From Bacillota bacterium (GTDB lineage: Bacteria > Bacillota > Sulfobacillia > JBFLWA01): DNA of 64,000 nucleotides. The notes under the pieces are model-generated. The model did not search any database. It had not been told where the DNA came from and saw only the letters and a program-made list of their open reading frames with translations. Made by a program: the position numbers and the translations under genes. The stretch spans positions 76,759 through 140,758 of the forward strand of contig JBFLWA010000004.1 in NCBI GenBank assembly GCA_040758135.1, read 5' to 3'. Shown one piece after another: positions 35,679 to 52,765 of the stretch. The number at the start of each line of letters is the position of its first letter. The first letter of the stretch is position 1.

Positions 35679-36444
35679 TCAGGCTGGCAAACTGAGCTTT
35701 CTAATTAGCCGCGACAGGCCGCCCGAGGCCGTGGTGCCGGCCGAGCGAATCAGTGGATGTGCCTGTTTGAACTGGAATGTTTCGGCGATCTCTCTGGCAA
35801 CGTGACCAGCTCCCGCTCTCAGCCGCTTCTCTACCTTCTCCAGTGTAGTCTGGTTAAGCTCCTCGCTGGCCTGTTCCAGCCGCCCTTCAAACTGCCTGGC
35901 CAGACTCTGGACGATCTGGTAGATCGCCCGGGGAAAGTACTTCACTCCCTCACAAATCCAACCGGCCCGGTCACCGTTAATCACTACCCAGGTCTTCTCA
36001 TCGATGCCGTAGATGCTGTAGAGTTTCCTGCTCGCCTCTTCCCAGAAGGCGACCTGGCCATCTGCCTCTACGAACAACACCGGCGCCTGGCGCTTCCCAT
36101 CCGGCTCATCACGGGCAGCCTCGTCATCCCTCTCTACCCGCTCCCCAAGCCTTAGAAATGGTCCCTGGACCCCCAACATGGCCACCAGTGCGCCAAGACC
36201 GGGAGCGACTCGCTGCCCCTCGGCAAGGCTCAGCATCTCGTCTGATCTCGTACCTCTGTTTGTCCCGCTCTTCGGCAATCCGGTCATCAATCGCCTGGAG
36301 GATCTGGGCCATACCTTCAGCCATCACTTCCAAGAACCTGCCAAATACTGCGCGCTCCAGTTCCCAGAAGGATATCCCGACTGCACCCTGAATGCTATCC
36401 ATGACGAGAGCACCGACCTCCTTTGTGTTGGCCTTAGCAACCAT
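35679..36444 (-). mobile_element. degenerate ISLre2/UPF0236-family transposase remnant
   Basis: The N-terminal fragment MVAKANTKEVGALVMDSIQGAVGISFWELERAVF... (36124-36444) continues out of frame as ...VLFVEADG...WVVINGDRAGWI... (35679-36290). There is at least one frameshift and apparent internal deletions. No terminal repeats were identified. Confidence 0.55.
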
Positions 36445-36553: not shown

Positions 36554-37027
36554 TCAGGCCCGAAGCAGCCCCCGCAGGTTAGCCATCTCAATGGCGGTCA
36601 GGGCCGCTTCCCAGCCCTTGTTGCCGCCCTTGGTGCCGGCCCGCTCGATGGCCTGTTCGATGGTGTCGGTGGTCAGGACCCCGAAGACGGTGGGAACCCC
36701 GGTCCCCAGCCCGACCTGGGCCACCCCCTTGGCCACCTCAGAGGCGACGAAATCGAAGTGCGGGGTGGCACCCCGAATCACCGCCCCCAGACAGATGACC
36801 GTGCTGTACTTACCGCTGCCTGCGGCGAGCTGGGCGGCCAGTGGGATCTCGAAGGCACCGGGAACCCAGATCACCTCCACATCCTCGGCCTGCACCCCGT
36901 GCCGGGTGAGGCAGTCCAGAGCCCCACTCAGGAGCTTGCTGGTGATAAACTCATTGAACCGGCTGAGGATGATCCCGAACCTCAGCCCTTCTCCCATCAG
37001 GTGACCTTCAATCACTTTGCTAGTCAC
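36554..37027 (-). CDS. ribH: 6,7-dimethyl-8-ribityllumazine synthase
   Basis: 157-aa ORF with VPGAFEIP and the conserved lumazine synthase core. It is the last gene of the rib operon. Confidence 0.95.
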
Positions 37028-37042
37028 TGCAGTTCTCCTCCC

Positions 37043-38242
37043 TTACTCCAGATGTCCGAGACGGGTTCGCTTGGTCTCCAAATACAACCGATTGCACTCG
37101 TGTTCGCCGGTCCACATGGGGATGCGCTCGACGATCTCTAGCCCATAGCCCTCCAGTCCCGCGAACTTGCGCGGGTTGTTGGACATCAACCGGATGCGCC
37201 TGACCCCCAGATCGGCCAGGATCTGGGCGCCGATACCGTAATCTCGCATGTCCGGCGGGAAGCCGAGCTTAAGGTTGGCCTCCACTGTGTCGTAGCCCTG
37301 GTCTTGTAGGGCGTAGGCCCTGATCTTGTTGGCCAGGCCGATCCCCCGCCCCTCCTGGCGCATGTAGAGGAGGACGCCGCGCCCTTCTTCCTCGATGCGC
37401 CGCAGGGCCCGGGCCAGCTGGTCACCGCAGTCGCAGCGCCGGGAGCCCAGCACATCGCCGGTCAGGCATTCGGAGTGGACCCGGACCAGAACCGGCCGGT
37501 CACTACTGACATCGCCCTTGGTGAGGGCCACATGCACCCGGCCGCTGAGCCGGTCCTCATAGGCAGTGAGCTCGAAGACCCCGTGGGCCGAAGGTAGGTT
37601 GACGGTGGCCACCCGCTCCACCATCCGCTCCCGCTGCATCCGGTATTCGACCAAGTCAGCAATGGTGATGATCTTTAGCTTGTGCTGGGCCGCGAACTCT
37701 AATAGCTGGGGAACGCGGGCCATGGTGCCATCCGGGTTCATGACTTCGCAGATAACCCCGGCCGGGTAGAGCCCAGCCAGCCGGGCCAGATCCACCGCCG
37801 CCTCGGTGTGCCCGGGGCGGCGCAGCACACCACCCTCCCGGGCCCGCAGTGGAAAGATGTGGCCGGGGCGGACGAAGTCATCGGGGCCGGCCGCTGGATC
37901 CAGGGCCCTGAGGATGGTCAGGGCCCGCTCGTGAGCGGAGATACCGGTGGTTGTCCCCTCCCGGGCATCGATGCTGACGGTGAAGGCGGTGCCCTGGTGG
38001 TCGCCGCACCCGGCGGTCATCAAGGGGATCCCTAACTGGTCCAGGCGCTCGCCGGTGAGGGGCAGACAGATGAGACCTCGGCCGTGGGTGGCCATGAAGT
38101 TGATGGCCTCGGGGGTGACCTTATCGGCCGCCATCAGCAGGTCGCCCTCATTCTCCCGGTCTTCGCTGTCGCAGACCACCACCATCTGCCCGGCGGCGAT
38201 GGCCTCTAGCGCTTCCTCAATTGTGTTGAACTTTGGCTCCAT
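37043..38242 (-). CDS. ribBA: bifunctional 3,4-dihydroxy-2-butanone-4-phosphate synthase / GTP cyclohydrolase II
   Basis: 399-aa ORF with [11 protein letters not shown] (DHBP synthase) and [21 protein letters not shown] (GCH II zinc site). Confidence 0.95.
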
Positions 38243-38257
38243 GATGATACCTCCTGC

Positions 38258-38893
38258 TCAGAACCCGAGTTCCTTCAGGCGCTCGGCGGTAAGGGGGCGC
38301 TGCCGCCCCGCCTCCCGGTAGCGGGTCAGGTATTTGGCAATCATATCGGCCTCCAGATTGACCAGGTCACCGGGGCGGCGGTCGCCCAGGTTGGTGACCT
38401 GCTGGGTATGGGGGATCAGGTCCACGGCCAGGCTGTCGGGGCGCCGGTCGGCGATGGTCAGGCTAACCCCGTCCACGGCGATGGAGCCCTTCTGGGCCAG
38501 GTAGGGGCGGACGGCTGGTGGGGCCAGGATCCAGAGCTCGGCCGAGGAGGCGCGCCGGTCGATGCGCAGCACCCGGCCGACGCCATCCACATGCCCCTGA
38601 ACCAAGTGGCCTTCGAGGTGCTGGTCGGCCCGGAGCGCCCGCTCCAGGTTGACCCGGCTTCCGCTCCGCAGCCAGCGGAGGTTGGTCTTCTCCACTGTCT
38701 CGGCCATAACATCAGCCTGAAACATATCGCCGGCCCGGTGGACTACCGTCAGGCAGACCCCGTTGACGGCAATACTATCGCCCACCGACGCGCTGGCGGT
38801 GGTGGCCGGGGCGACAATGGTCAGGCGCAGCTCGCCGGCCCTGGCCACGGCCCGGCGCACGGCCCCCACCTCGGTAATAAGTCCGGTGAACAT
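38258..38893 (-). CDS. ribE: riboflavin synthase alpha chain
   Basis: 211-aa ORF with an [11 protein letters not shown]-terminus and an internally duplicated barrel. Confidence 0.95.
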
Positions 38894-40005
38894 TAGTCTA
38901 CCTCCCCACGGGTGCTGGGATAAGCGGTTATCAACCAGTCTGCCCCCACTGCCTCCACCGTCTCAATCACCAGGGGGCGGGCCTGGCGCAGCAACTCCGG
39001 ACCCTGCCCGCCAACGGGGCCGGGAGCCGATCGCCCGCCAATGAGCATTGGGGCCACAAAGAACAGAAACTTGTCGACACATCCAGCCGCCACGAAGGCG
39101 GCGGCCACCTCGGGTCCACCCTCCACCAGCAAGCTGGTGATCTCGCGCTGGGCCAGCAATGGCAGGAGCTCGCCGGGCTCGGGGCGCGACCCGGCGGCCC
39201 GGTGCACCTCGATCCCCAGCCGGGTCAGAGCCCGCTCCCGGGCCGGGTCGGCCCCCCGCCCGGACATGACCAGGGTGGCGACCTCCCCGGCCGTGGCGGC
39301 CAGGCGCGAGGCGGTGGGCAGGCGGAGGCGGCTGTCCAGCACCACCCGCAGGGGATTCTGTCCGCCCGGCACCCGGGCGGTGAGCAGCGGGTCATCGGCC
39401 AGCACCGTGCCAATTCCCACCAGTATGGCATCATACTGGCTGCGCAGCCGGTAGACCCGCTCGCGGGCCGGCTCGGAAGTGATCCAGCGCGAGTCGCCGC
39501 CAACAGTGGCCACCTTGCCGTCCAGGCTCATGGCCGCTTTCAGCGCCACAAAGGGGCGGCGCTCCCGCATAAAGGTGAAGAAGACCTCGTTCTGGCGCCG
39601 GGCCGCCCCGGACAGGAGTCCCACCTCCACCTCAACTCCGGCCGACCGTAGCTCGGCGATACCCCGCCCGGCCACCAGCGGGTTGGGGTCCATGGCCGCG
39701 ACCACCACCCGGCGCAACCCGGCATCAATGATCGCCCGGGTGCAGGGCGGGGTGCGCCCGTAGTGGCAGCAAGGCTCAAGGGTGACATAGAGGGAGCCGC
39801 CGGCCGCCCGGCCGCCCGCCTCCCGCAGGGCCAGGATCTCGGCGTGGGGCTCACCGGCCCGCTGGTGCCAGCCGCGGCCCACGGCCTCGCCGGTGGCGTC
39901 GAGCACCACCGCCCCCACCATGGGGTTGGGGCTGACGGTGGCCCGGCCCAGCTCGGCCAGGCGCAGGGCTTCAGTCATCCACTGCCGGTCATCCACACTG
40001 CTCAC
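38893..40005 (-). CDS. ribD: bifunctional diaminohydroxyphosphoribosylaminopyrimidine deaminase / 5-amino-6-(5-phosphoribosylamino)uracil reductase
   Basis: Deaminase zinc motifs HAEILAL and TLEPCCHYGRTPPC, followed by the reductase domain. The start is uncertain: GTG 40005, GTG 39996 or ATG 39978. The track ORF start at 40065 would lie inside the riboswitch expression platform. Confidence 0.9.
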   Translation of the reverse strand: MSSVDDRQWMTEALRLAELGRATVSPNPMVGAVVLDATGEAVGRGWHQRAGEPHAEILALREAGGRAAGGSLYVTLEPCCHYGRTPPCTRAIIDAGLRRVVVAAMDPNPLVAGRGIAELRSAGVEVEVGLLSGAARRQNEVFFTFMRERRPFVALKAAMSLDGKVATVGGDSRWITSEPARERVYRLRSQYDAILVGIGTVLADDPLLTARVPGGQNPLRVVLDSRLRLPTASRLAATAGEVATLVMSGRGADPARERALTRLGIEVHRAAGSRPEPGELLPLLAQREITSLLVEGGPEVAAAFVAAGCVDKFLFFVAPMLIGGRSAPGPVGGQGPELLRQARPLVIETVEAVGADWLITAYPSTRGEVD

Positions 40006-40024
40006 CCCCGACAAACAACTAGCC

Positions 40025-40222
40025 CCGGGTCGAAAAAAACCGGGGCAATACGCGTGCGCAAACAACCAATGGCGCGCTCGAACCTTCTCCCATCCAGACT
40101 GTACTGTCGGCCCCGGAATCTCACCGGATCCTGCCGCCTAAGCGGCTCGCGGGCTCCCTCAAGGAGGTTACCGCCGGTCAGGAATTGGGGGTTTCCCCCC
40201 TCACCATGCCCCGAAGGTAGTA
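40025..40222 (-). promoter_or_regulatory. FMN riboswitch (RFN element) controlling ribD
   Basis: The minus strand reads CTTCGGGGCATGGTGAGGGGGGAAACCCCCAATTCCTGACCGGCGGTAA...AGCCCGCGAGCC...GGATCCGGTGAGATTCCGGGGCCGACAGTACAGTCTGGATGGGAGAAGG. This matches the conserved RFN core blocks. Confidence 0.9.
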
Positions 40223-40239
40223 TTAACTTGTGCTAGTTT

Positions 40240-40268
40240 ATTATATTAGGTATTTGGCCACATGTAAA
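40240..40268 (-). promoter_or_regulatory. rib operon promoter
   Basis: TTTACA (40268-40263), a 17-nt spacer, then TATAAT (40245-40240), about 20 nt upstream of the riboswitch. Confidence 0.7.
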
Positions 40269-40285
40269 TTACCTTACCAGCATTT

Positions 40286-40315
40286 TTGCGTCGATTGCCG
40301 CTCAAGTGGTATAAT
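40286..40315 (+). promoter_or_regulatory. promoter of the LCP-GNAT-FkbH-ACP::DUF43 operon
   Basis: TTGCGT (40286-40291), an 18-nt spacer, then extended -10 TGGTATAAT (-10 hexamer at 40310-40315). It lies back-to-back with the rib promoter. Confidence 0.55.
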
Positions 40316-40403
40316 ATGGTCGGACAAGGTGGTTGCGGTTTGCCGGAGCAGCGGAGCGAGGATAGTCAAAGCACGCAGAGGGCAAGGTCTGGAGGGAACT
40401 GTA

Positions 40404-41354
40404 TTGCGCAGGTCTGTTGTCATGGTGGCCGGTATCTCGCTCGCAGTTTTATGCTCCTTCGCCCTGTCCATCATCGTCCGCCCGGCGCTGCGCGCCGCGC
40501 CCGAGCCTCCGCCGCTGGCCGCCCCGAGAGCCGAAGCCTCGCCACGCGGCAGCACTCCCCACCGAGAGCTCACCACTTTCCTGCTGGTGGGGCTGGATAC
40601 ACCGGACCAGGAGGTCAAGAAGGCCCCCGTCCGGTCGGATGTGATCATCGTCGGGGCGCTGGACGCCCAGGCGGGCAAGGTGAGCCTGATCTCCATCCCC
40701 CGGGACACCTATGTCTATATTCCCGACCGCGGGATGGACAAGATCAACCACGCCTTTGCCTTCGGCGGCGGCACCAGGGGCGACGGCGGGGTAAAGCTGC
40801 TGCAGCAGACGGTCATGCGCTTCCTAGGGCTGCCCAGGATCGACTCTTACGTGGTGATCGATATGAACACCATCGTCCAGATGGTTGACGCCATCGGTGG
40901 GATCACCGTCCGCCTGGACCGCTCGGTCTGGCTAGACGAAAACACCCAACTGCCCAAAGGCGAACACCGCCTCAACGGACACCAAGCACTACTCTTAGTG
41001 CGCCAGCGCAAACTGGATCCCCAGGGCGATTTCGGGCGCATCAAGAACCAGCAGGCCTTCCTACGGGGGGTATTGGAGGAAGTCCGCTCCGCCGGCATGA
41101 ATGAGAAGCTGAGCCTAGCCTCGTATGCCCTGAAGCACGTGCGGACCAATGTCAGCCTAACCTACGCCGTCGGGATGATGAACTCCCTCAAGGATCTGAC
41201 CGTTGACGACATAACCAGCTACATCATACCTGGCACCGACCTCTGGCTGAAGGGGATCGCCTATGTCAAGCCCGACCTGAACCGGACGGCCGAGATCGCC
41301 CAAGAGGTCTTTGGGGTGGAGAACAAGAAGGTGAAAGTACGGGGAGCCCGCTAG
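40404..41354 (+). CDS. LCP (LytR-CpsA-Psr) family glycopolymer transferase
   Basis: N-terminal TM anchor, then TFLLVGLDTPD...RSDVIIVGALD...VSLISIPRDTYVYIPDRGMDKINHAFAFGG. I chose the TTG at 40404, with GGAGGGA 6 nt upstream. The track ORF start at 40230 precedes the predicted promoter. Confidence 0.85.
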   Translation: MRRSVVMVAGISLAVLCSFALSIIVRPALRAAPEPPPLAAPRAEASPRGSTPHRELTTFLLVGLDTPDQEVKKAPVRSDVIIVGALDAQAGKVSLISIPRDTYVYIPDRGMDKINHAFAFGGGTRGDGGVKLLQQTVMRFLGLPRIDSYVVIDMNTIVQMVDAIGGITVRLDRSVWLDENTQLPKGEHRLNGHQALLLVRQRKLDPQGDFGRIKNQQAFLRGVLEEVRSAGMNEKLSLASYALKHVRTNVSLTYAVGMMNSLKDLTVDDITSYIIPGTDLWLKGIAYVKPDLNRTAEIAQEVFGVENKKVKVRGAR

Positions 41355-41381
41355 CCTACAGTGACCCGGGAGGATGAGACA

Positions 41382-41870
41382 GTGACAGACGAGGCAGTGG
41401 TAGAGGTAAGAGCGGCACGAGAAGGCGATATCGCCCAGCTGGCCCGGTTCGAGGCAGAAATCGCCGCCATCTCCTTCGGGGAGGAGGCGGTGACCGACCC
41501 GGCCCAGCACACCAGGAAGCTCCACCGGGCCCTCGGCAAGGATGACGAGATCATGCTGGTCCTGGCCGAGGGTGACCAGGTGCAGGGCTGGCTGTGGGTC
41601 TCCGTCAACACCAATATGTTCACCGGCAGCCGCTACGCCAACTTCCGCAGCTTCGCCCTGGCTCCCACCTTCCGCGGCGGCCGCTGGGGCGAACAGCTCT
41701 TCCGGGCCGGGCTGGAGCGCATCCGCCGCCTGGGCGGGATCACCCGGGTGGTCGGACGGGTCCATGTGGACAACTTGCCCATGCGCCTCCTCTATAAGCA
41801 GCTCGGCTTCGTCCCCCAGCACCTGACCATGGAGCTCTGCCTGAAGGACGAGGCTGAGGGTCATGAGTGA
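41382..41870 (+). CDS. GNAT family N-acetyltransferase
   Basis: Acetyl-CoA-binding region (FRGGRWGEQLFRAGLERIRRLG) and a C-terminal LYKQLGF. I prefer the GTG at 41382, with GGGAGGA 8 nt upstream, over the track start at 41361. Confidence 0.8.
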   Translation: MTDEAVVEVRAAREGDIAQLARFEAEIAAISFGEEAVTDPAQHTRKLHRALGKDDEIMLVLAEGDQVQGWLWVSVNTNMFTGSRYANFRSFALAPTFRGGRWGEQLFRAGLERIRRLGGITRVVGRVHVDNLPMRLLYKQLGFVPQHLTMELCLKDEAEGHE

Positions 41871-42882
41871 GCCCATCAAGATCGTCTTCTGGGATCTGGA
41901 TGGTACTCTCTGGGGCGGTACCCTGGAGGAAGATGCCGACGAACTGACCATCCCCCCCGGCGAAGTGCGCGAGGTCCTACTGGAGCTGGATCGCCGGGGG
42001 ATCCTCCACTCGGTGATCAGTCAGGCGGCGTCGGCAGCGGCCGGAAGGCGCCTGGCCGAGCACGGGTTGGACCACCTTTTCCTGCGCCCCAAGTACAACG
42101 TGGTCAGCAAGGCGCAGGCCATCGCCGAGACCCTGCGGGAGCTGAACCTGCTCCCCAGCAATGCCGCTTTCATCGATGACCTCCCCTTCTACCGGGGCGA
42201 AGTACAGCAGCTGCTGCCCGAGGTGCTGACCCTCGGTCCCGAGGCTATTCCCGACCTCCCCCGCCACCCGCGCTTCGCCATCCGCTCCACCCTGGGCTCC
42301 ACCCGGCGCGAGCTCTACCGGGCGGAGGAACAAAGGGAACAGGCCGAGCTGAAGTTCGCTGGTAGCCGGGCCGAGTTCCTGGCCTCGTGCCAGATGGTGC
42401 TGACCTGCCACCCAGTCCGGGAGAGCGACCTCGCCCGCCTGCACGAGCTCTTCGCCCGCACCCATCGGCTGAGCATCCGCCCGGCGGGCGGAGAGACCGC
42501 CAGCACCGACCACGGCCTGATCCGGAAGTTCGTGGCTGAACTGAAGGACCGATTCGGCGACTATGGGCTGGTTGCCGGAGCGGCCATACATATTACCCAT
42601 CCGGAATGGAACTGCCGGCAACTATCCATCTCCTGCCGGGTGCAGGGGCGGGGCGTGGTAGAGGGATTCTTAGCCTGGCTAGTCAAAATGGCTGCACAAG
42701 ATGATGCCGTTTTGTCATTGACGGTTTCTACCGCCTCCGAGGTCAACCAGCCGCTGCGCACCGCCCTGCGTCTGGCCGGGTTCGCCCCGGCCGATAAGGG
42801 GCCGGGCTGGGAGCGCCTGGTACCGGTGCGGCCGGAGCGGCTGGGGGTGCCGGAATGGATCAGATTGGAGGAGCGCCCATGA
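41863..42882 (+). CDS. HAD-IIIC / FkbH-like domain protein
   Basis: HAD motif I IVFWDLDGTLWGG and motif IV-like AFIDDLP, with a C-terminal acyltransferase-like half, as in FkbH-family proteins (from recollection). Overlaps the GNAT gene by 8 nt. Confidence 0.7.
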   Translation: MSEPIKIVFWDLDGTLWGGTLEEDADELTIPPGEVREVLLELDRRGILHSVISQAASAAAGRRLAEHGLDHLFLRPKYNVVSKAQAIAETLRELNLLPSNAAFIDDLPFYRGEVQQLLPEVLTLGPEAIPDLPRHPRFAIRSTLGSTRRELYRAEEQREQAELKFAGSRAEFLASCQMVLTCHPVRESDLARLHELFARTHRLSIRPAGGETASTDHGLIRKFVAELKDRFGDYGLVAGAAIHITHPEWNCRQLSISCRVQGRGVVEGFLAWLVKMAAQDDAVLSLTVSTASEVNQPLRTALRLAGFAPADKGPGWERLVPVRPERLGVPEWIRLEERP

Positions 42883-44162
42883 CCCAGAATACACAGGACC
42901 AGCGACAGCTGATGGCCATTTTGAGCCGTCTCTCGGGTCGGCCGGAGGAGAACATCGCCCCCGAGCTCCCCCTCTTCGGCAAGGGGCTGGGGCTGGATTC
43001 GGTCTCCGGCGTGGCCTTGATGACCGCGCTGGAGGAGGAGTTCGGGATCACCTTGGACGATATCGATCTGCATATGGAGGCCCTAGACAGCGTAGGTAAC
43101 TTGCTTAAGCTGGTGGGCGACCCGACCCGCCGCCCCAAGAGCTGGGCCCGCCAGCTGGAGCAGGTGGCCACCGCCGCCAGGCTGCACGAAGGGCGGGCCG
43201 GGGTCGAGAGGGTCATCGGCCAGGTGGCAGCCAGTCCGGGTCTGACCTCCCGGGAGCTGGCTGCCCGTTGCTCGCTTCCCACACCGGTGGTGGCGGCGGT
43301 CCGTAAAGAGCTGGCCAGGGCCGGGCTGCTGGAGGAGGCGGGTAAGGGCGCCCGCCTGACCGGGCCGGGCGAGGAGATCGCGCGCGGCCTGCGCCTGGGG
43401 GTAGACCAGACGACCGAAGACCCAGCCGAGACGCACCGGGCCCGACGCTCGCCCCTCTTCCCCGAGCTGGTGGAGCGGCTGACGCCCCTCCTGGAGCAGC
43501 GACCCAAGGCCGACTTTGCGCTGGACCAGGCCAAGAGCCTGCCGGAGACCACCGCCGCCCGGGCCCTGCTGGCTCTGGACTATGGGGTGCTCTTGGGCAA
43601 ACGGGTGGCCTTCGTTGGTGATGACGATTTTACCGCGGTGGGCCTGGCGGTACTGGGCCAGATGATGGAAGAGCGGGGCGCGGCGGGCCCCACCCGCCTG
43701 ACGGTCCTGGACATTGATAAACGCATCCTATCGGTAATGGGCGGGTTGGCTGACCAATACGGATACCCTGTTGAGCCCGTGGAATACGACGCGCGCCTCC
43801 CCGTGCCGAAGCAGCTGGTTGGCACCCACGATGCCTTCTTCACCGACCCGCCCTACACAGTGGCCGGGGCCCGGCTCTTCGTCTCCCGGGGTGTGGAACT
43901 CTGCCGCCCCGCTGGCTTCCTGGCCTTTTTCTCCTTCGCCAACAAGGGGCCCCGGGAGATGCTGGAGGTACACCGGGCCATGGTGGAAATAGGGCTCTTG
44001 GTGCGGGAGGTAGTCCCACGCTTCAACCGCTACGAGGGAGCCAGCCTCTGGGGGAACCAGTCGCAGATGATTGTCTTCGAGGGAACCGATGTTGCCCGCT
44101 CCGTCGAGAGCGGAGAATACGGCGGCCCCCTTTACACCAGGGAGTTCAGGAAACGAGGATAG
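42879..44162 (+). CDS. fusion protein: carrier-protein (PP-binding) domain + winged-helix-like segment + DUF43/BpsA-like aminopropyl/methyltransferase-fold domain
   Basis: ATGA overlap with the upstream gene. The N-terminal ~80 aa contain GLGLDSVSGVALMTALEEEFGI (a Ser attachment-type motif). The middle contains LTSRELAARCSLPTPVVAAVRKELARAGLLEE. The C-terminal part has RVAFVGDDDFTAVGLA, LTVLDIDKRIL and DAFFTDPPYT, typical of DUF43 (N4-bis(aminopropyl)spermidine synthase family). Confidence 0.7.
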   Translation: MTQNTQDQRQLMAILSRLSGRPEENIAPELPLFGKGLGLDSVSGVALMTALEEEFGITLDDIDLHMEALDSVGNLLKLVGDPTRRPKSWARQLEQVATAARLHEGRAGVERVIGQVAASPGLTSRELAARCSLPTPVVAAVRKELARAGLLEEAGKGARLTGPGEEIARGLRLGVDQTTEDPAETHRARRSPLFPELVERLTPLLEQRPKADFALDQAKSLPETTAARALLALDYGVLLGKRVAFVGDDDFTAVGLAVLGQMMEERGAAGPTRLTVLDIDKRILSVMGGLADQYGYPVEPVEYDARLPVPKQLVGTHDAFFTDPPYTVAGARLFVSRGVELCRPAGFLAFFSFANKGPREMLEVHRAMVEIGLLVREVVPRFNRYEGASLWGNQSQMIVFEGTDVARSVESGEYGGPLYTREFRKRG

Positions 44163-44297: not shown

Positions 44298-44504
44298 ATG
44301 ATGCGCCACAACGGAGACACCTCGAACCGCAAGATCGGCGATCGCTCCAGGCTGCCCTGGTGGCATACAGAGCACCTGGCCTCGGATATGGAGATCGCGG
44401 AGGAGATTGGTGCCCACCACCGGGAGAACCCGCTCCGAGTGACCAACTACCTGACCAAAACGCTGTTTCTTACCGGGCACTACCAAGACGGAATCTACTT
44501 CTAG
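44298..44504 (+). CDS. hypothetical 68-aa protein
   Basis: The ORF has an AAGGAGTGA RBS 4-5 nt upstream of ATG ATG. I recognised no family. Confidence 0.35.
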   Translation: MMRHNGDTSNRKIGDRSRLPWWHTEHLASDMEIAEEIGAHHRENPLRVTNYLTKTLFLTGHYQDGIYF

Positions 44505-44581
44505 GCCCAGAACAGAAAGGAAGCCAACCCCGTATGGGCCAAGGCCTCCTTCGTCTGTTTCCGGGGGTGATGGCGGGACGC

Positions 44582-45135
44582 CTAGCCCCGGGTATAAACT
44601 TCCTTACCTTCGATGAAGACCCGCTGGCAATGGGTGAGTGTATCGAAGGGATATCGAAGGGATGCCCGTCGAAGATAGCGATATCGGCATCCTTCCCCAC
44701 CTCCAGGCTGCCGACCCGGTCGGCGATTCCCAGGATCTCGGCCGGGTTAATGGTGGTGGCCTTCCAGGCCTCATCCTCCGGCAGCCCTTCCCGGACAGCG
44801 ATGCCGGTATGGATGGGCAGCCAGCGGGTGTTGGAAGAGGTGTCGACCTGAATGGCGACCTTCACCCCGGCCTGAGCCAGGATCCCGGCGTTCTTCAGGG
44901 AGACATCGTTGAGCTCCATCTTGGCCCTGGTCATCAGCAGCGGTCCGACGGTGACCCGGACGCCCTTGGCGGCCAGCAGGTCGGCAATCTTATAGCCCTC
45001 GGTGCAGTGCTCCAGGAGCTCCCGGACCTTGACCAGTGCATCGCGGAGGACGGCCGCGTTGCCCATGCGGGTGGCGGGACCGCCGTTTCTACTGCCGTAG
45101 TTGCGCTTAGGGTTCTCGCCCTTCCTACCGGGAGG
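44582..45135 (-). pseudogene. amidohydrolase-family gene remnant: 5' truncated, internally deleted, 3' frameshifted
   Basis: The homologous stretch GENPKRNYG..PATRMGNAAVLRDAL jumps to EHCTEGYKIADLLAAKGVRVTVGP...VKVAIQVD...INPAEILGIADRVGSLEVGKDADIAIFDG. Removing one copy of the 11-bp duplication restores the canonical C-terminus GHPFDTLTHCQRVFIEGKEVYTRG and a stop at 44582-44584. Confidence 0.7.
44642..44663. repeat. perfect 11-bp tandem duplication (ATCGAAGGGAT x2)
   Basis: Read directly: 44642-44652 and 44653-44663 are identical. This creates the frameshift in the amidohydrolase remnant. Confidence 0.9.
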
Positions 45136-45221
45136 AGCAGAAAAGGGTGAAGTGGCCGGAAAAGACGGGAAAAAGCCCCCCGAAGGGGGCCAGGAGCTAT
45201 TCTTCATTCGTGGGATACCGG

Positions 45222-45926
45222 TCAATCGCCGTAGTAGTACCGCTGGTGCCCCTCGCCTCCCCGCTTCACCGCGTTCAACACAATCCCCAGCAAGTGACAC
45301 TTACCTCCGATGAGAGAGCGAACCGCGTGGACCGCTGTCTCCTTAGTCACCTTGCCGGACCGCATGGTCAGCACTACGCCGTCAACCTGCATGCCCAGGA
45401 GCACCGGATCCGCCACCGCCAACATGGGGGGGGAGTCCACGATCACCAGGTCGTACACATCGCTGAAGTGCTCGATCATCTGCTTCATCCGTTGGGAGCC
45501 CACCATCTCCGCCGGATTGGGCGGGATCGGTCCAGAGGTCAATACCCATAGGTTCTCAATCCCACTGAACTGCACGAAATCGTCGAACTCGCGTGCTGTA
45601 CTTACCAAAGCAGTGCTGACCCCTGAGGTGTTGGGCAGCCGGAACGCCTTATGCACCGCAGGCCTCCGCAGGTCAGCATCGATAATCAGTACCCGCTGGC
45701 CGTTCCGGGCAAAGGAGACCGCCAGGTTACACGTGGTAGTCGTCTTCCCCTCGCCAGGTGTCGCGCTGGTTACTGCAATAGTTCGGAGAGGGTTATCCAC
45801 ATTGAAAAACTGGATGTTTGTCCTCAGCATACGGTAGGCCTCGGCCGCCTGGGAGTGCTCGGGAGCCAGATTAATGCCAGCCTGATTATTAGTGGCATCG
45901 GACCTCCTGCGCTTGCTGGTCGCCAT
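45222..45926 (-). CDS. CpsD/CapB-type tyrosine-protein kinase (BY-kinase)
   Basis: Walker A TSATPGEGKTTT, Walker A' VLIIDADLRRP, Walker B VIVDSPP, and a C-terminal tyrosine cluster QRYYYGD. Confidence 0.9.
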   Translation of the reverse strand: MATSKRRRSDATNNQAGINLAPEHSQAAEAYRMLRTNIQFFNVDNPLRTIAVTSATPGEGKTTTTCNLAVSFARNGQRVLIIDADLRRPAVHKAFRLPNTSGVSTALVSTAREFDDFVQFSGIENLWVLTSGPIPPNPAEMVGSQRMKQMIEHFSDVYDLVIVDSPPMLAVADPVLLGMQVDGVVLTMRSGKVTKETAVHAVRSLIGGKCHLLGIVLNAVKRGGEGHQRYYYGD

Positions 45927-46651
45927 TAGCCCCTGCCCCTTTCCGGACTGTTCTTCTGGACACCGCCGTTGCGCTTACTGCTGCCGCTTTCAAGGACCTT
46001 GTCGAACTCGGGGATAACACCCAATACGGGGACATCGAACAGCTCCTCCAGTTCGTCCGGATTCTCGACGGTGTTATCCATGTACTCTGCCAGAAACGCT
46101 ATTCCGAGACCGGTTAGCGCTCCGAGAAAAGCGCTCACTACCATCACCTGCATCTTCCGGGGCTTGACTGGATCGGTGGGCACCCGGGCTTCATCAATGG
46201 TTACCACATTGTCTACCTGCATAATTGAGATAACACTGCGCTTAAACGCATCGGCGGTAGCATTGGCGATAACCTTGGCCTGCACCGGGTCAGCATGTTC
46301 TACCACAATCTCAATGATCTCCGTATCGCCCCGCAGCCGGACATCCACTGCCCGGCGCAATTCGTCGGCAGTGGTATCCAGATCAAGCCAGGTAATAACC
46401 TGATCCATCACCTTAGCGCTGCGAGCGATCTCCCGGTAAGTCTTAACAATCTGTCGATTAGCCAAGATGTCTTGATAGATGATTTGCTGTTCCCCTGGTG
46501 TCTTACCTACCAGCAGCGTCGTGCTGGCTTCGTAAACGGGCTGGACAATAAAAAAGACCATGACTGCCGCTGTTGCTAAAGCGATGACTGGAATTGCTGC
46601 AATAACGGCAAACCTCTTCCGAAGTATCGTGATGACTTCTCTCAGCTCCAT
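45926..46651 (-). CDS. Wzz/CpsC-type chain-length determinant / kinase modulator
   Basis: 241-aa ORF with an N-terminal TM, a periplasmic-type loop and a C-terminal TM (VMVVSAFLGALTGLGIAFLAEYMD). There is a 1-nt overlap with the kinase gene. Confidence 0.85.
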   Translation of the reverse strand: MELREVITILRKRFAVIAAIPVIALATAAVMVFFIVQPVYEASTTLLVGKTPGEQQIIYQDILANRQIVKTYREIARSAKVMDQVITWLDLDTTADELRRAVDVRLRGDTEIIEIVVEHADPVQAKVIANATADAFKRSVISIMQVDNVVTIDEARVPTDPVKPRKMQVMVVSAFLGALTGLGIAFLAEYMDNTVENPDELEELFDVPVLGVIPEFDKVLESGSSKRNGGVQKNSPERGRG

Positions 46652-46966: not shown

Positions 46967-47753
46967 CTATCCGGATAGCCTCAATGGTCTGCTCTCTAAC
47001 GGGTAATCTCGTAGCCCCATCAGGTAGGCGATGTCCGCCGTCGGGTCGATTACCGGTTCGATCTTCCCTGTCTTCGAGGTGAACAGGCTGGTCACTCCGG
47101 GCCCGTGACCGGCGATTACCGAATGCCGTGGATCACGATGCCAATGGACATGCCCCCTGCCAGTAAATGCGGCCAGATGAATGATCAGCATCAACAATAG
47201 CCACCAGGTCGCCCAGGCGCAGGTCCTCCAGGCCGTATTCGCGGACCACGCCCTCGTCAAAATAGTTAATATCGTAATCGCCCCGGTAGACGTTGTCCCG
47301 GCCCAGGCCGGAGCCCATCACCGCCGCCGGCACCGTGAGCCCGGATGAGGACCTTATCGCCGATAACTATCTTCTCCATAGTCTCCCGGTCGAAATCGAC
47401 CATCACCCGCTCGGCCCCGCCATGCTTGCCGGTGACCACACCCCGTGCCCCTTCGGCTTTGCCGGAGACCACAATGGCCTCATTGCCCAGGCAGGCCAGC
47501 ACGTTCAGGCCGCCGTTGGCGCCGCTGAAGCCGTCGCCTCCTTGTTCTTGATGCTCACCGCCGGCTCCACATGGTCGGCCTCCCAGTCCACCGCTGAGTC
47601 GCCCACCCGCATGTTGTAGGTAATCCCACCGGTCCCCACCAGCACCGCTAGATCGCCATCGGCGGTGACGTTGTAAGGGCTGTGACCAATCCCCGGGTGG
47701 GCCACTTCGCCTAGCACTGAAATCTCTATCAGACGTTCGATACTAGTCCGCAT
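46967..47753 (-). pseudogene. DUF4438-like gene broken by several frameshifts
   Basis: Four consecutive fragments in different frames (47505-47753, 47266-47502, 47133-47333, 46967-47260) read as one protein: ...HVEPAVSIKNKE / LACLGNEAIVVSGKAEGARGVVTGKHGGAERVMVDFD / GDYDINYFDEGVVREYGLEDLRLGDLVAI / GHGPGVTSLFTS. The family assignment is from recollection. Confidence 0.55.
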
Positions 47754-49412: not shown

Positions 49413-49661
49413 TTGACGGTAATCACGGTCTGCATCGGCAGTGGCTGCCACCTCAAAGGCGCTCACCGCATCATCGACCGCCTCAAGTCTCTCTTGCAGG
49501 AATATAGCCTGGCTGCCGCCGTCCGCCTCAAGGCCTCCTTCTGCCAGAACCACTGCACCCAGGGAGTGGTGGTCAGCTTTGATGACCGCCGCTACACCGG
49601 AGTTAGCCCAGAGAGCATCGATGCCCTGTTCGCCAGTGAGATTAGGAGGGGGTCGATGTGA
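49413..49661 (+). CDS. thioredoxin-like [2Fe-2S] ferredoxin (HfsA/NuoE-like small subunit)
   Basis: Four-Cys pattern CIGSGCH...FCQNHC. I prefer the TTG at 49413, with an AAGGAGAGGAG RBS, over the track start at 49383. Confidence 0.7.
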   Translation: MTVITVCIGSGCHLKGAHRIIDRLKSLLQEYSLAAAVRLKASFCQNHCTQGVVVSFDDRRYTGVSPESIDALFASEIRRGSM

Positions 49662-51343
49662 GCTGCGTCACCACCAACAAGGCCCGCTGCCAGGATTGCC
49701 ACCGCTGTATCCGCGTCTGCCCGGTAAAAGCTATCGGCCTGCGCCATGGGCAATGCTGGGTAGTGGCTGAGCGCTGCATCCTCTGCGGCGCGTGCTTGCG
49801 CGCCTGCCCGCAAAAGGCTAAGCTAGTGGCCAATGCCACCGATCGGGTGCGCCAGCTCATCGCCGCCGGGCGACCGGTGGTGGCTAGCTTGGCCCCCTCC
49901 TACCCCGCCGCCTGGTCCCGCCCGGGCCAGCTGGTGGCGGCCCTGCGCCGCCTGGGGTTCACCGCAGTGGAGGAGACGGCGGTGGCCGCTGCCCCGGTGG
50001 CCGAGACCTATCGCCAGCGTTTCGCGGCCAGCACCGCCCCGCTCATCTCGGCCTGCTGCCCGGTGGTGGTGGAGCTGATCGAATCGCGCTTTCCCTCGCT
50101 CATCCCCTACTTGGCCCCCTCGGCCTCGCCCATGGTCGCCCATGCCTCTGACCTGGCGCAGCGCCGCCCGGAGGCAGCGATGGTCTTCATCGGCCCCTGC
50201 ATCGCCAAGATGCAGGAGGCCCAGCGCACCAAGACCCAGGGCCGGGTCGCCGCGGTACTCACCTTTGACCAGCTGGCATCGTGGTTGGCTGAGGAGGGAA
50301 TCGACCCCGCGCAGCTGCCGGAGGAGCAGCCCGACCTGGTCGCTGGCCTCCTGGCTACCTTCCCCCTGACTCGGGGAATCCGTCAGGCCGCCGGCCTCTC
50401 CAGCCTCCCCTCGGCCCAGCTGATCAGTGTGGATGGGCTGGACGGCTGCCTAGAAACCCTCTCCGATCTGGCCTCCGGTGCCATCGCCCCGGGACCGGTC
50501 TTCTTCGAACTGCTGGCCTGCCGCGGCGGCTGTATCGGCGGCTCCGGCCTCTCCAGCCCGCTTGGGCTGGTCGCCCGCCACCAGGCGGTGGTGGCCCACG
50601 CCCGGGAGTGCCCGGCCCAGCCGTACCGCCCGGCCGAGGTGGCCGCTTGCTTCGCCGCCCAGACCATAGACGCACCCCAGCCCACCGATGAACAGATGCG
50701 AGAGATCCTCTCCCGCATCGGCAAACGGAGCCCGGCCGATGAGAAGAACTGCGGAGGCTGCGGCTACAGTACCTGCCGGGAGAAGGCAATCGCCGTCCAC
50801 CAGGGCCTGGCCGAACCGGAGATGTGCGTCCCCTATATGAAAGCCAAGTTTGAGACCCTGGCCCACGCTGTGGTTGACTCCAGCCTCAGCGGGGTAGTGA
50901 TTGTCAATGGTCAGATGGAGATTCAGGAGTTCAACCCGGCTGCCAACCGGATGTTCAACCCCGGCGGGCTTGACCCCAAAAACCATTCGCTGGGCACCTT
51001 CCTGGACCCGGCCGACTTCCAGCGGGTCTGGGAGCGCAAGGAGCGCATCGTGGCCAAGCGGGTGGTTTACCCCCACCACAACCTGGTTACCAGCCAGACG
51101 ATCTACCCGCTGGAGAACTACGGAATGGTGGTGGGCCTGATAACCGACATTACCGATCAGGAGAGCCGGGCCCAGGCCGAGGCCGAACTCCGGGAGAAGA
51201 CAGTGGAGAAAGCCACGGCGGTCATAAAGAACCAGATGCGGCTGGCCCAGGAGATCGCCGGCCTACTGGGCGAGGCTACCTCGGAGAGCAAAGCCACCCT
51301 GCTGGAGCTGGTCGCGCTCCTGACCAGCCGGGAGGAGGGTTGA
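49658..51343 (+). CDS. sensory-type [FeFe]-hydrogenase-like protein with C-terminal PAS domain (HydS/HfsB-like, group C)
   Basis: Two N-terminal 4Fe-4S motifs (CQDCHRCIRVCP, CILCGACLRACP). H-cluster motifs SACCP, GPCIAKMQE and ELLACRGGCIGG. An additional CGGCGYSTC...C motif, then a PAS-like segment (VVIVNGQMEIQEFNPAANRMF...GLITDITDQE). GTGA overlap with the upstream gene. Confidence 0.85.
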   Translation: MSCVTTNKARCQDCHRCIRVCPVKAIGLRHGQCWVVAERCILCGACLRACPQKAKLVANATDRVRQLIAAGRPVVASLAPSYPAAWSRPGQLVAALRRLGFTAVEETAVAAAPVAETYRQRFAASTAPLISACCPVVVELIESRFPSLIPYLAPSASPMVAHASDLAQRRPEAAMVFIGPCIAKMQEAQRTKTQGRVAAVLTFDQLASWLAEEGIDPAQLPEEQPDLVAGLLATFPLTRGIRQAAGLSSLPSAQLISVDGLDGCLETLSDLASGAIAPGPVFFELLACRGGCIGGSGLSSPLGLVARHQAVVAHARECPAQPYRPAEVAACFAAQTIDAPQPTDEQMREILSRIGKRSPADEKNCGGCGYSTCREKAIAVHQGLAEPEMCVPYMKAKFETLAHAVVDSSLSGVVIVNGQMEIQEFNPAANRMFNPGGLDPKNHSLGTFLDPADFQRVWERKERIVAKRVVYPHHNLVTSQTIYPLENYGMVVGLITDITDQESRAQAEAELREKTVEKATAVIKNQMRLAQEIAGLLGEATSESKATLLELVALLTSREEG

Positions 51344-51344
51344 G

Positions 51345-52490
51345 ATGCTTATCTCGGCCGATATTGCCTGCCGCCAGCTACCTAAGGAGGGTGAGGAGCT
51401 GTGCGGCGACGCGGTGGAAATCGTCCGCGACCGCCAGGGAGTGACAGTCATCCTCTCCGATGGTCTGGGGAGCGGGGTCAAGGCCAGCATCCTGGCGACC
51501 CTCACCGTAAAGGTCGCCGCCGGTCTGCTGCGCCGTCGGGTCGACCTCCACACCGTTCTCGAATCCGTCGCCGACACCCTGCCGGTCTGCCAGACCCGGG
51601 GGCTGGCCTACTCCACTCTCTCGATCCTGCGTCTGGAAGAGACCGGCCAGGCCAGCCTGGTGGAGATCGGCAACCCGGGGCTGCTCCTCTTCCGGGGCGG
51701 TCGACCAGTACCCGTCGAGCGCCGCACTTCCTGCATCATGGGGAAAGAGGTGGCCGAAGCTAAATTCGCTGTAGAGCCTGGCGATTGCCTGCTTCTGGTC
51801 TCTGACGGAGTGATCCACGCCGGGGTCGAGGCCCTGTTCGATCTGGGATTGGGCCCGGAGGGCCTCATCGAGCACCTCCCCGACCCCTGCCAGCCGGCCC
51901 GCACCGCCATCGAACTGGCCCGGATTATCATCGAGCTGGCCGAGGCTTGTTCCTGCGGGGCACCGCGCGACGACGCCACCGCCGTGGCAGTGAAGATCCG
52001 GGCACCGAGCCGGGTCACTGTCTGTACCGGGCCGCCCGTGCGCCCCGCCGATGACCGGCGGTTGATCCAGCGGCTCCTGGCCGATGTCGCCAGCCAGAAG
52101 GTGGTCTGCGGCGGCACCACCGGCCAGATCGTGGCCCGGGAGACCGGGCATGAGCTGACGGTGGAGCCTGAGTACGCCGACCCGGCCATCCCGCCCACCG
52201 CCGAAATCGAGGGCGTGGCCCTGGCCACCGAGGGAATCCTAACTCTCAACCGCTGTCTGACCATCCTCAGCCGGCCCGAGCCCGAGATCACCGGAGCCGA
52301 TGGCGCCTCACGCCTGGCCCGGATTCTGCTGGAGGCTGATGAGGTAACCTTCTTGGTGGGGCTGGCCCAAAACCCGGCCCACCGCGACTTGGAGACCCTG
52401 GCCCACCTATTGCCCAGAGACAAGAGCGTCGACCGCCTGCAGTCCATCCTCGAGGAGATGGGCAAGCGGGTGATGGTTGAATTCTTCTAG
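51345..52490 (+). CDS. PP2C/SpoIIE-family serine phosphatase
   Basis: EELCGDAVEIVRDRQGVTVILSDGLGSGVKASILA and LLLVSDGVIHAG match PP2C-type metal-binding motifs. The gene starts 2 nt after the HydS-like stop. Confidence 0.85.
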   Translation: MLISADIACRQLPKEGEELCGDAVEIVRDRQGVTVILSDGLGSGVKASILATLTVKVAAGLLRRRVDLHTVLESVADTLPVCQTRGLAYSTLSILRLEETGQASLVEIGNPGLLLFRGGRPVPVERRTSCIMGKEVAEAKFAVEPGDCLLLVSDGVIHAGVEALFDLGLGPEGLIEHLPDPCQPARTAIELARIIIELAEACSCGAPRDDATAVAVKIRAPSRVTVCTGPPVRPADDRRLIQRLLADVASQKVVCGGTTGQIVARETGHELTVEPEYADPAIPPTAEIEGVALATEGILTLNRCLTILSRPEPEITGADGASRLARILLEADEVTFLVGLAQNPAHRDLETLAHLLPRDKSVDRLQSILEEMGKRVMVEFF

Positions 52491-52507
52491 AGAGAGGTAC
52501 TGTTTAT

Positions 52508-52765
52508 ATGGAGAAGAAGCTTGTCGTAGAAGTCTGCGCCGGGACCACCTGTCACCTGATGGGCGCCTCCGACCTGTTGCTGGCCCTGAAGCGTCTCGAG
52601 CCGGGGCTACGGGAGCGAGTTCGCATCTCTTTCTGTGCCTGTCTCGGCGAGTGCTCCCACGGCCCCAACCTGCGGGTCAGCGGCAACCTCTACCACCGAG
52701 TCGACCCCGAGCTGCTGCCCCTGCTCCTTACTCGCCTACTGGACGAATTGGGGGATGAGCTGTGA
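52508..52765 (+). CDS. thioredoxin-like [2Fe-2S] ferredoxin, second copy
   Basis: 85-aa ORF with Cys pattern CAGTTCH...CACLGEC. Its stop overlaps the start of the next gene (GTGA). Confidence 0.7.
   Translation: MEKKLVVEVCAGTTCHLMGASDLLLALKRLEPGLRERVRISFCACLGECSHGPNLRVSGNLYHRVDPELLPLLLTRLLDELGDEL

Follow-up and report, generated by a model that had tools for sequence, protein, structure and literature searches.

A 64,000-nucleotide stretch of DNA from a Bacillota bacterium, referred to below as the window, contains one copy of a gene cassette encoding a GNAT-family protein, an FkbH-like enzyme, an acyl carrier protein (ACP) and a relative of the aminopropyltransferase BpsA. These genes form a conserved, self-contained and widespread bacterial cassette of four to five genes. 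All enzyme families of the cassette are known, and the combination is undescribed in the literature that we searched. In the Bacillota clade of the window, bpsA has been relocated behind acp and fused to it, the window copy being a rearranged, ACP-fused member of the cassette. We tentatively propose, as a reading that is possible though somewhat short of probable, that the cassette makes an aminopropyl-extended polyamine capped with a glycerate-derived acyl group.

An earlier note on this DNA, made from the sequence alone, had described four tightly packed genes on the forward strand, encoding a LytR-CpsA-Psr (LCP) protein, the GNAT, the FkbH-like enzyme and the ACP::BpsA-like fusion, and a check of the list of open reading frames (ORFs) bears this arrangement out. 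The Pfam matches for the domains it had named (LCP, GNAT, phosphopantetheine-binding and BpsA_C) are all significant. The GNAT and FkbH-like genes overlap by 8 nt, and the stop codon of the FkbH-like gene and the start codon of the fusion gene (ATG 42879) form an ATGA overlap. The GNAT likely starts at GTG 41382, behind the putative ribosome-binding site GGGAGGA, in agreement with a 162-aa database call (P0185). The features of the cassette in the window are as follows.

41382–41870, + strand: cassette-specific GNAT, 162 aa (longer ORF from 41361); PF00583, 39.4 bits
41863–42882, + strand: FkbH-type enzyme (HAD-IIIC plus GNAT-fold domain); TIGR01686, 137.4 bits
41893–41907, + strand: HAD motif I of the FkbH-like enzyme, D11-L-D-G-T15, placed by motif alignment
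42634–42636, + strand: codon of Cys258, within the SCRVxGRG motif; the residue is the presumed nucleophile that forms the acyl-enzyme and is kept in 60 of 60 aligned homologs
42879–44162, + strand: ACP::BpsA-like fusion gene; PF00550 plus PF01861
42879–43121, + strand: ACP (phosphopantetheine-binding) domain of the fusion; PF00550, 42.2 bits, aa 10–78; matches ACP chains in the PDB
42999–43001, + strand: codon of Ser41 (LDS41VSG), predicted to bear the phosphopantetheine where helix II starts, from conservation and a helix beginning at residue 41 in the AlphaFold2 (AF2) model
43140–43463, + strand: BpsA-type N-terminal domain (winged-helix-like), aligning to residues 29–140 of 5XNC, 2QM3 and 6J27
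43464–44162, + strand: BpsA_C Rossmann-fold aminopropyltransferase domain; PF01861, 135.2 bits, aa 196–411; 5XNC, E = 1e-28
43617–43628, + strand: GDDD motif, G247–D250, invariant in alignments

Conservation and fusions of the cassette

A metagenome scan with the GNAT alone yielded at least 447 related stretches, and 80 loci were fetched; the soil origin of many of the stretches was judged from contig and sample identifiers only. The loci were searched with hidden Markov models built from our own alignments. All 80 GNAT-fetched loci carry the other cassette parts wherever the contig permits, and bpsA is present in every locus with enough flank on both sides (28 of 28). The most frequent gene order is bpsA-gnat-fkbH-acp. 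The order gnat-fkbH-acp-bpsA, with acp and bpsA either separate or fused, is kept in all close relatives of the window copy, in which the flanking genes vary (a cyclase and a helicase, SpmA/B-like Gate proteins, an isochorismatase or a metallo-beta-lactamase). A small gene for a pyruvoyl-type S-adenosylmethionine decarboxylase (AdoMetDC; speD) directly adjoins the cassette in most lineages (about 35 loci), where it is divergent from bpsA, lies between gnat and fkbH or is fused to the BpsA gene. A gene for an Sfp-type phosphopantetheinyl transferase (PPTase) adjoins the cassette in five loci.

The cassette proteins also occur fused to one another. The ACP::BpsA fusion of the window recurs in six other loci; BpsA::GNAT fusions were found in three loci (L023, L030 and L040) and in six representative proteins, P0222 among them; and BpsA::AdoMetDC fusions were found in two loci (L013 and L031). 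A 635-aa protein (P0223) combines GNAT, FkbH and ACP in one chain, and a GNAT::ACP protein is also present. Because the same four components recur in several fusion combinations, these Rosetta-stone links indicate that the parts work together.

The cassette spans a GC content of 0.39–0.78, and its hosts include Bacillota metagenome-assembled genomes (MAGs), a Clostridium MAG, Nocardioides (Actinomycetota) and a Microbulbifer plasmid. It is probably also present in Streptomyces, from which only GNAT fragments were recovered. In Nocardioides alkalitolerans (L023, 7001–11338; KE384533.1, about 688–692.3 kb), genes for a BpsA::GNAT protein with a zinc-ribbon linker, an FkbH-like enzyme, an 85-aa ACP-like protein, AdoMetDC and an Sfp-type PPTase stand side by side, and this cultured actinomycete would be a ready experimental host. 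The gammaproteobacterial plasmid CP128432.1 of Microbulbifer sp. MKSA007 (L106, 8–4870) carries a decayed cassette beside Tn3 transposases, with speD, genes for an ACP-like protein of 81 aa, a long HAD-IIIC/FkbH-like protein and two GNATs, one of them of the cassette type, and bpsA in two pieces. Its public annotation gives the cassette genes generic names only.

Two sets of candidate additional members were set aside. What looked like a fifth gene, immediately before bpsA in 20 loci, has no Pfam match and is the opposite strand of speD. In one high-GC lineage, probably from soil, ergothioneine-type genes (EgtD-like PF10017 plus an amidotransferase, and a GCS2/EgtA-like gene) and a pyridine-nucleotide disulphide oxidoreductase gene lie a few kilobases from the cassette (L085, 6106–8301; L094, 1833–5036; L046, 6199–7827; and six to eight similar cases). 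These and the KdpD, thiolase and CDP-alcohol transferase neighbours probably reflect lineage synteny, since they are absent from other cassette clades, although for the ergothioneine-type set a connection with thiol or redox metabolism is conceivable.

The fusion joins an ACP to a full-length BpsA-like enzyme

The motifs quoted in the earlier note (LDS41VSG, G247DDD and TDPPYT) are found in the fusion protein, and both of its Pfam scores lie well above the respective cut-offs (20.8 bits for PF00550 and 27 bits for PF01861). Its description as a fusion of three parts has to be revised to two, as the winged-helix segment, which gave weak matches to MarR_2 and HTH_24 in Pfam, is not a separate module. 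Residues from about 91/93 to 424 match the solved BpsA structures 5XNC, 2QM3 and 6J27 end to end, and the protein is therefore an ACP joined to a full-length BpsA-like enzyme; in the comparison with the PDB, the matches to 5XNC (E = 1e-28) and 6J27 (E = 3e-21) cover query residues 91–424. The AF2 model of the fusion has a mean pLDDT of 91.9 and a pTM of 0.86. When it was searched with Foldseek, the top nine matches were all of BpsA type, namely eight BpsA chains and the Pyrococcus homolog 2QM3, deposited as a predicted methyltransferase.

The fusion is not unique to this assembly. It is carried by seven protein clusters defined at 90% identity, which show 56–60% identity, and because these come from independent JGI, NCBI and Logan samples the fusion is genuine and not an assembly artefact. 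The predicted attachment serine, in the form LDS41(V/L)SG, is kept in all seven fused proteins, and GLDSL is the most frequent motif among the cassette ACPs. In the closest unfused relatives, which are 54–55% identical, the ACP is encoded by a separate gene of 88–89 aa (L005, L006 and L011), the stop codon of which overlaps the bpsA start.

The FkbH-like enzyme is probably paired with the ACP

In its AF2 model (pLDDT 93.7), the FkbH-like enzyme folds into an N-terminal HAD phosphatase domain and a C-terminal domain of GNAT fold, and Foldseek matched the model to HAD phosphatases and GNATs; the HAD matches of its sequence to the PDB were weak. WDLDGT, K83, D105 and S257-C258-R259 are invariant in 60 homologs, and each motif variant listed for 56 cassette and 17 canonical FkbH proteins has a WDLDGT-type and an SCR motif. 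We take Cys258 to be the catalytic acyl carrier, as in FkbH and OzmB.

The suggestion that the ACP serves the neighboring FkbH-like enzyme gains strong comparative support. In 47 of the 48 loci with enough DNA, fkbH is followed within 600 nt by a gene or domain for an ACP, and the 48th also has one, behind a frameshifted fkbH. This arrangement makes the ACP a very probable partner for the FkbH-like enzyme. The FkbH/ACP pairs of polyketide pathways (FkbH/FkbJ of FK520; Tmn16 and Mad7–Mad8 of tetronates) have the same HAD-IIIC plus GNAT-fold architecture, the DxDxT and SCR motifs and a small dedicated ACP that always adjoins. The established FkbH reaction converts 1,3-bisphosphoglycerate into glyceryl-S-ACP (PMC7489565). 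By analogy, the unit loaded onto the cassette ACP is very likely glyceryl, so that glyceryl-S-ACP would be the expected product common to these pairs and the cassette. The two differ in their partners, which in the cassette are an aminopropyltransferase and a GNAT.

This likeness raises the alternative that FkbH and ACP supply hydroxymalonyl-ACP, methoxymalonyl-ACP or a tetronate glyceryl unit to a polyketide synthase (PKS) or non-ribosomal peptide synthetase (NRPS) encoded elsewhere, in which case the BpsA-like protein and the GNAT would be polyamine enzymes with no relation to them, encoded close by through chance. FkbH relatives at 34–38% identity do stand in such contexts, in classical FkbH-ACP-dehydrogenase cassettes beside NRPS or PKS genes, the paradigm of which has been described (PMC7489565); a third relative adjoins an ACP together with radical-SAM and methyltransferase genes. 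However, FkbK/FkbI-type dehydrogenases, an O-methyltransferase, a FabH-like protein and PKS or NRPS genes were found in no cassette locus, and the co-occurrence of FkbH and ACP with BpsA and GNAT is near-universal and extends to covalent fusions. We regard a supply function for polyketide or peptide assembly as extremely improbable.

The BpsA-like domain and the GNAT differ from known polyamine enzymes

True BpsA (N4-bis(aminopropyl)spermidine synthase, EC 2.5.1.128), which converts spermidine into N4-branched polyamines with dcSAM and is known from Thermococcus kodakarensis (Tk; 5XNC) and Thermus thermophilus (Tt; 6J27), has the same two-domain fold over its full length and belongs to the same family (PF01861), at an identity to the window protein of only about 25%. 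Both contain the invariant GDDD, kept as G247–D250 in 49 homologs, which in BpsA positions the aminopropyl group of decarboxylated S-adenosylmethionine (dcSAM) (PMC12979288). The polyamine-activating residues of Tk-BpsA are Asp225, Glu259, Tyr290 and Tyr316 (PMC12979288). Asp225, the Asp of TDPP, and Tyr290, the Tyr of FNxY, correspond to D323 and Y385 of the window protein and are both conserved; Tyr316 falls outside the alignable region. The window protein differs from BpsA in having DPPY in place of DPPE or DPVE and a 9-residue insertion after the GDDD strand. Unlike true BpsA, it is fused to an ACP (elsewhere to a GNAT or AdoMetDC) and encoded within an FkbH/ACP/GNAT operon. Linkage to AdoMetDC, adjacent or fused, in about 35 loci indirectly suggests dcSAM-dependent aminopropyl transfer by the BpsA-like domain, with dcSAM as the donor. 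On these features, the BpsA-like protein would work like an aminopropyltransferase, yet it fails to show part of what defines BpsA.

The same BpsA subfamily, recognizable by TDPPYT and K-x-P, occurs alone and without an ACP in Gottschalkia acidurici. DPPY and K-x-P were considered as cassette-specific marks and rejected, because both are nearly invariant in 49 bacterial BpsA-like proteins, the stand-alone Gottschalkia protein included. Many bacterial BpsA-like proteins end in a CxxC...CxxC zinc-ribbon (for example L105, 7001–8212, and L023, 7001–8815), which the window protein lacks.

The cassette GNATs form a compact subfamily, with 35 word-indexed matches and 76 representative clusters at E ≤ 1e-10 among 1.84 billion. 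The window GNAT shares 43.6% identity with the GNAT portion of the BpsA::GNAT fusion from Nocardioides. Against the PDB, the GNAT profile weakly matched the polyamine acetyltransferases Dpa (8A9O, E = 8e-6) and SpeG (7KWJ, E = 3e-3), among other GNATs. The GNAT fold is common to the cassette protein and the polyamine N-acetyltransferases SpeG, Dpa and PaiA/SSAT, whereas the cassette GNAT forms a separate subfamily, has a degenerate loop and is always paired with FkbH and ACP. In the cassette GNATs, motif A of the loop that binds the pyrophosphate of coenzyme A (CoA), (Q/R)-x-x-G-x-(G/A), is non-consensus and variable (RGGRWG, DRSAVG, ESRYSE).

The canonical loop, RYQGLG (in YRYQGLGKKL), is kept in pairs of BpsA::GNAT and speD without FkbH and ACP. 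Such sets, in which speD follows a BpsA::GNAT gene (L024, 6373–8358; P0034, P0290 and P0011), look like a simpler aminopropylation-acetylation module and are a possible ancestor of the cassette.

A possible route to an acylated polyamine

Domain identities, catalytic motifs, gene-set conservation, fusions and linkage to speD and PPTase genes are observed; which C3 unit and which amine serve as substrates, whether aminopropylation precedes acylation and what donates the acyl group to the GNAT are inferred. In the route that we propose, a PPTase encoded elsewhere would convert Ser41 of the ACP domain into the holo form. The FkbH-like enzyme would take a C3 unit from 1,3-bisphosphoglycerate, its HAD domain removing the phosphate; the unit would be held on Cys258, and the GNAT-fold domain would pass the glyceryl group to the ACP thiol. 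With dcSAM as donor, the BpsA-like domain would aminopropylate a free diamine or polyamine. Finally, the cassette GNAT would N-acylate the amine with glyceryl-S-ACP in place of acetyl-CoA, freeing the carrier. The product would be a soluble N-glyceroyl (2,3-dihydroxypropanoyl) aminopropylated polyamine.

Comparison of the loci somewhat favors a BpsA-like enzyme that acts on a free amine and a GNAT that uses an acyl-ACP donor. Stand-alone members of the BpsA subfamily, without an ACP, have the same active-site residues, which argues for a free amine as the acceptor. The cassette contains no thioesterase or other release enzyme, so that freeing the acyl group must fall to one of its own enzymes. 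An acyl-ACP donor for the GNAT would also fit its degenerate CoA loop, which is canonical in the BpsA::GNAT and speD pairs that have no FkbH or ACP, and its weak profile similarity to polyamine acetyltransferases. The GNAT::FkbH::ACP fusion resembles a unit for loading, carrying and unloading, and an evolutionary series in which FkbH and ACP were added to a BpsA, GNAT and speD set is plausible; both are in keeping with the free-amine route.

Several observations weigh against this proposal. The TIGR01686 match of the FkbH-like enzyme covers profile positions 4–320 of 323 and does not reach the cut-off of 146.65 bits; its Nocardioides ortholog scores 146.0 bits. The RTHQLNTTG motif of canonical FkbH is lost or altered in the window clade (RTHRLS) and mostly kept in other cassette clades, so the unit loaded here might not be glycerate. 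In true BpsA, a flexible C-terminal acidic cluster carries the aminopropyl group (E339 and D342–E345 in Tk; the DEE motif in Tt; PMC12979288). The BpsA-like domain has no such tail: the fusion terminates in GPLYTREFRKRG, three residues past the last position aligned to 6J27, and a conserved acidic cluster is absent. Tk Glu259 corresponds to G357 of an invariant K-G-P. Given the missing tail and the glycine at this position, the acceptor may differ from spermidine. Loss of the acetyl-CoA pyrophosphate loop in the cassette GNAT is proposed from the alignment alone. Neither speD nor a PPTase gene was found in the 64-kb window by tblastn. Finally, ACP::BpsA is the type of fusion usual for an enzyme that acts on a tethered substrate. 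A cassette-wide change of FkbH substrate was also considered and rejected, the altered RTHQLNTTG being specific to the window clade.

Some of the same observations suit an alternative in which the substrate stays on the carrier. FkbH would load glyceryl, the BpsA-like enzyme would place the aminopropyl group of dcSAM on the ACP-bound glyceryl, for example on a hydroxyl, the ACP arm taking over from the acidic relay tail, and the GNAT would then acetylate or release the product. The absence of the tail and of Glu259 fits such a route, as do the direct fusion of the ACP to the BpsA-like enzyme, modeled confidently as a single body, and the speD linkage, which indicates that dcSAM is used. Yet bpsA and acp are unfused and at opposite ends of the operon in most cassettes, BpsA is equally often fused to GNAT or AdoMetDC, the same active-site residues occur in BpsA-like proteins without an ACP, and no release step is clear. 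Against it, too, we know of no precedent for aminopropyl transfer from dcSAM to oxygen. A tethered route thus appears unlikely, and it is equally doubtful that the BpsA-like protein is the first aminopropyltransferase to act on or through a phosphopantetheinyl carrier, building an ether- or otherwise-linked aminopropyl-glycerate block of a new and widespread metabolite class.

The LCP gene and other surroundings in the window

The gene upstream of the cassette and its promoter region comprise the following features.

40230–41354, + strand: LCP ORF in its longest form (ORF list)
40286–40315, + strand: promoter-like site, TTGCGT (40286–40291), 18 nt, extended −10 element TGgTATAAT (40307–40315), read in the sequence
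40404–41354, + strand: LCP (LytR-CpsA-Psr) glycopolymer ligase; PF03816, 140.5 bits; TIGR00350, 120 bits

The most likely start of the LCP gene is TTG 40404, which lies behind GGAGGG and is followed by a putative N-terminal membrane helix. The first 170 nt of the long ORF cannot be coding because they overlap the divergent rib promoter (40268–40240, − strand) and adjoin a flavin mononucleotide (FMN) riboswitch (40222–40078). The extended −10 promoter reported earlier is legible in the sequence; a consensus scan gave it no score, since its −35 element matches at three of six positions. The LCP gene, whose stop codon occupies 41352–41354, is probably co-transcribed with the cassette in this genome, yet it stands outside the conserved cassette.

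The earlier note had linked the cassette to cell-wall polymer attachment. In the fuller form of this reading, the enzymes would make a modified unit for an envelope glycopolymer, which the upstream LCP enzyme would attach to peptidoglycan under the control of a nearby Wzz and bacterial tyrosine kinase (BY-kinase) pair. The pair is present as described (Wzz, 45926–46651; BY-kinase, 45222–45926; both − strand), 1–2.5 kb downstream on the opposite strand, and only 27 nt separate the LCP gene from the GNAT start, with one promoter-like site ahead of both. However, none of the 104 other loci scanned for homologs of LCP, Wzz and BY-kinase (L001–L104) contains any, and these loci include the closest relatives at 54–60% identity. 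Among the window genes, no glycosyltransferase, flippase or polymerase lies near the cassette or the Wzz/BY-kinase pair, and a probable truncated amidohydrolase pseudogene separates the two. The envelope link is unsupported for want of these homologs in the other loci, and we consider it quite improbable; the upstream LCP gene is a lineage-specific neighbor, its adjacency peculiar to this lineage.

Downstream of the cassette, the match of the ORF at 44470–45300 (− strand) to an amidohydrolase is confined to the C-terminal portion (PF01979 positions 189–323 of 345), and the ORF is probably a truncated pseudogene. The Wzz/BY-kinase genes (45222–46651, − strand) are an orphan pair. Just beyond them, a DUF4438 gene (46967–47753, − strand) is spread over at least three reading frames (47505–47753 and 47266–47502, both N-terminal; 46967–47260, C-terminal) and is either a frameshifted pseudogene or the product of sequencing errors. 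Farther on, two [FeFe]-hydrogenase-like genes (49658–51343 and 52762–54213, + strand) flank a SpoIIE/PP2C phosphatase gene (51345–52490); the first has a weak PAS match below the Pfam cut-off, and the set (49658–54213) may be a sensory hydrogenase signaling unit. On the other side, a complete riboflavin operon (36554–40268, − strand) with ribD (40065–38893), ribE (38893–38258), ribBA (38242–37043) and ribH (37027–36554) stands behind the FMN riboswitch (95.9 bits) and a near-consensus promoter (TTTACA-17-TATAAT, 40268–40240), divergent from the LCP/cassette promoter. A 203-aa ORF (35679–36290, − strand) looks like a mobile-element remnant, its match to a UPF0236-family transposase being limited to a short internal segment.

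Relation to known pathways and implications

The transfer of a phosphopantetheinyl carrier-bound acyl group to a primary amine of a polyamine has precedents in siderophore biosynthesis, in the petrobactin (AsbC/AsbD/AsbE) and vibriobactin (VibB/VibH) pathways. There, an aryl acid is loaded by an adenylating enzyme instead of a C3 unit by FkbH, AsbE or a condensation domain acts as transferase in place of a GNAT, and the operons contain no aminopropyltransferase. In agreement with the earlier note, we found no characterized pathway with the gene set of the cassette in the literature. No paper was found in which BpsA, polyamines or aminopropyl transfer are brought together with FkbH/HAD-IIIC proteins or with a carrier protein, although most subscription journals lay outside the coverage and an earlier description is possible. 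A 2026 review of BpsA mentions no carrier protein, acetyltransferase or gene cluster (PMC12979288).

The cassette points to an unrecognized class of modified polyamine. If our proposal is correct, FkbH-type C3 loading would be used outside polyketide synthesis, a new use of this chemistry, and a GNAT would draw its acyl group from a carrier protein. The existence of cultured hosts and of a compact unit of three to five genes makes the question directly testable. BpsA-family proteins of non-thermophiles would thereby gain a testable role besides the synthesis of branched polyamines for heat tolerance.

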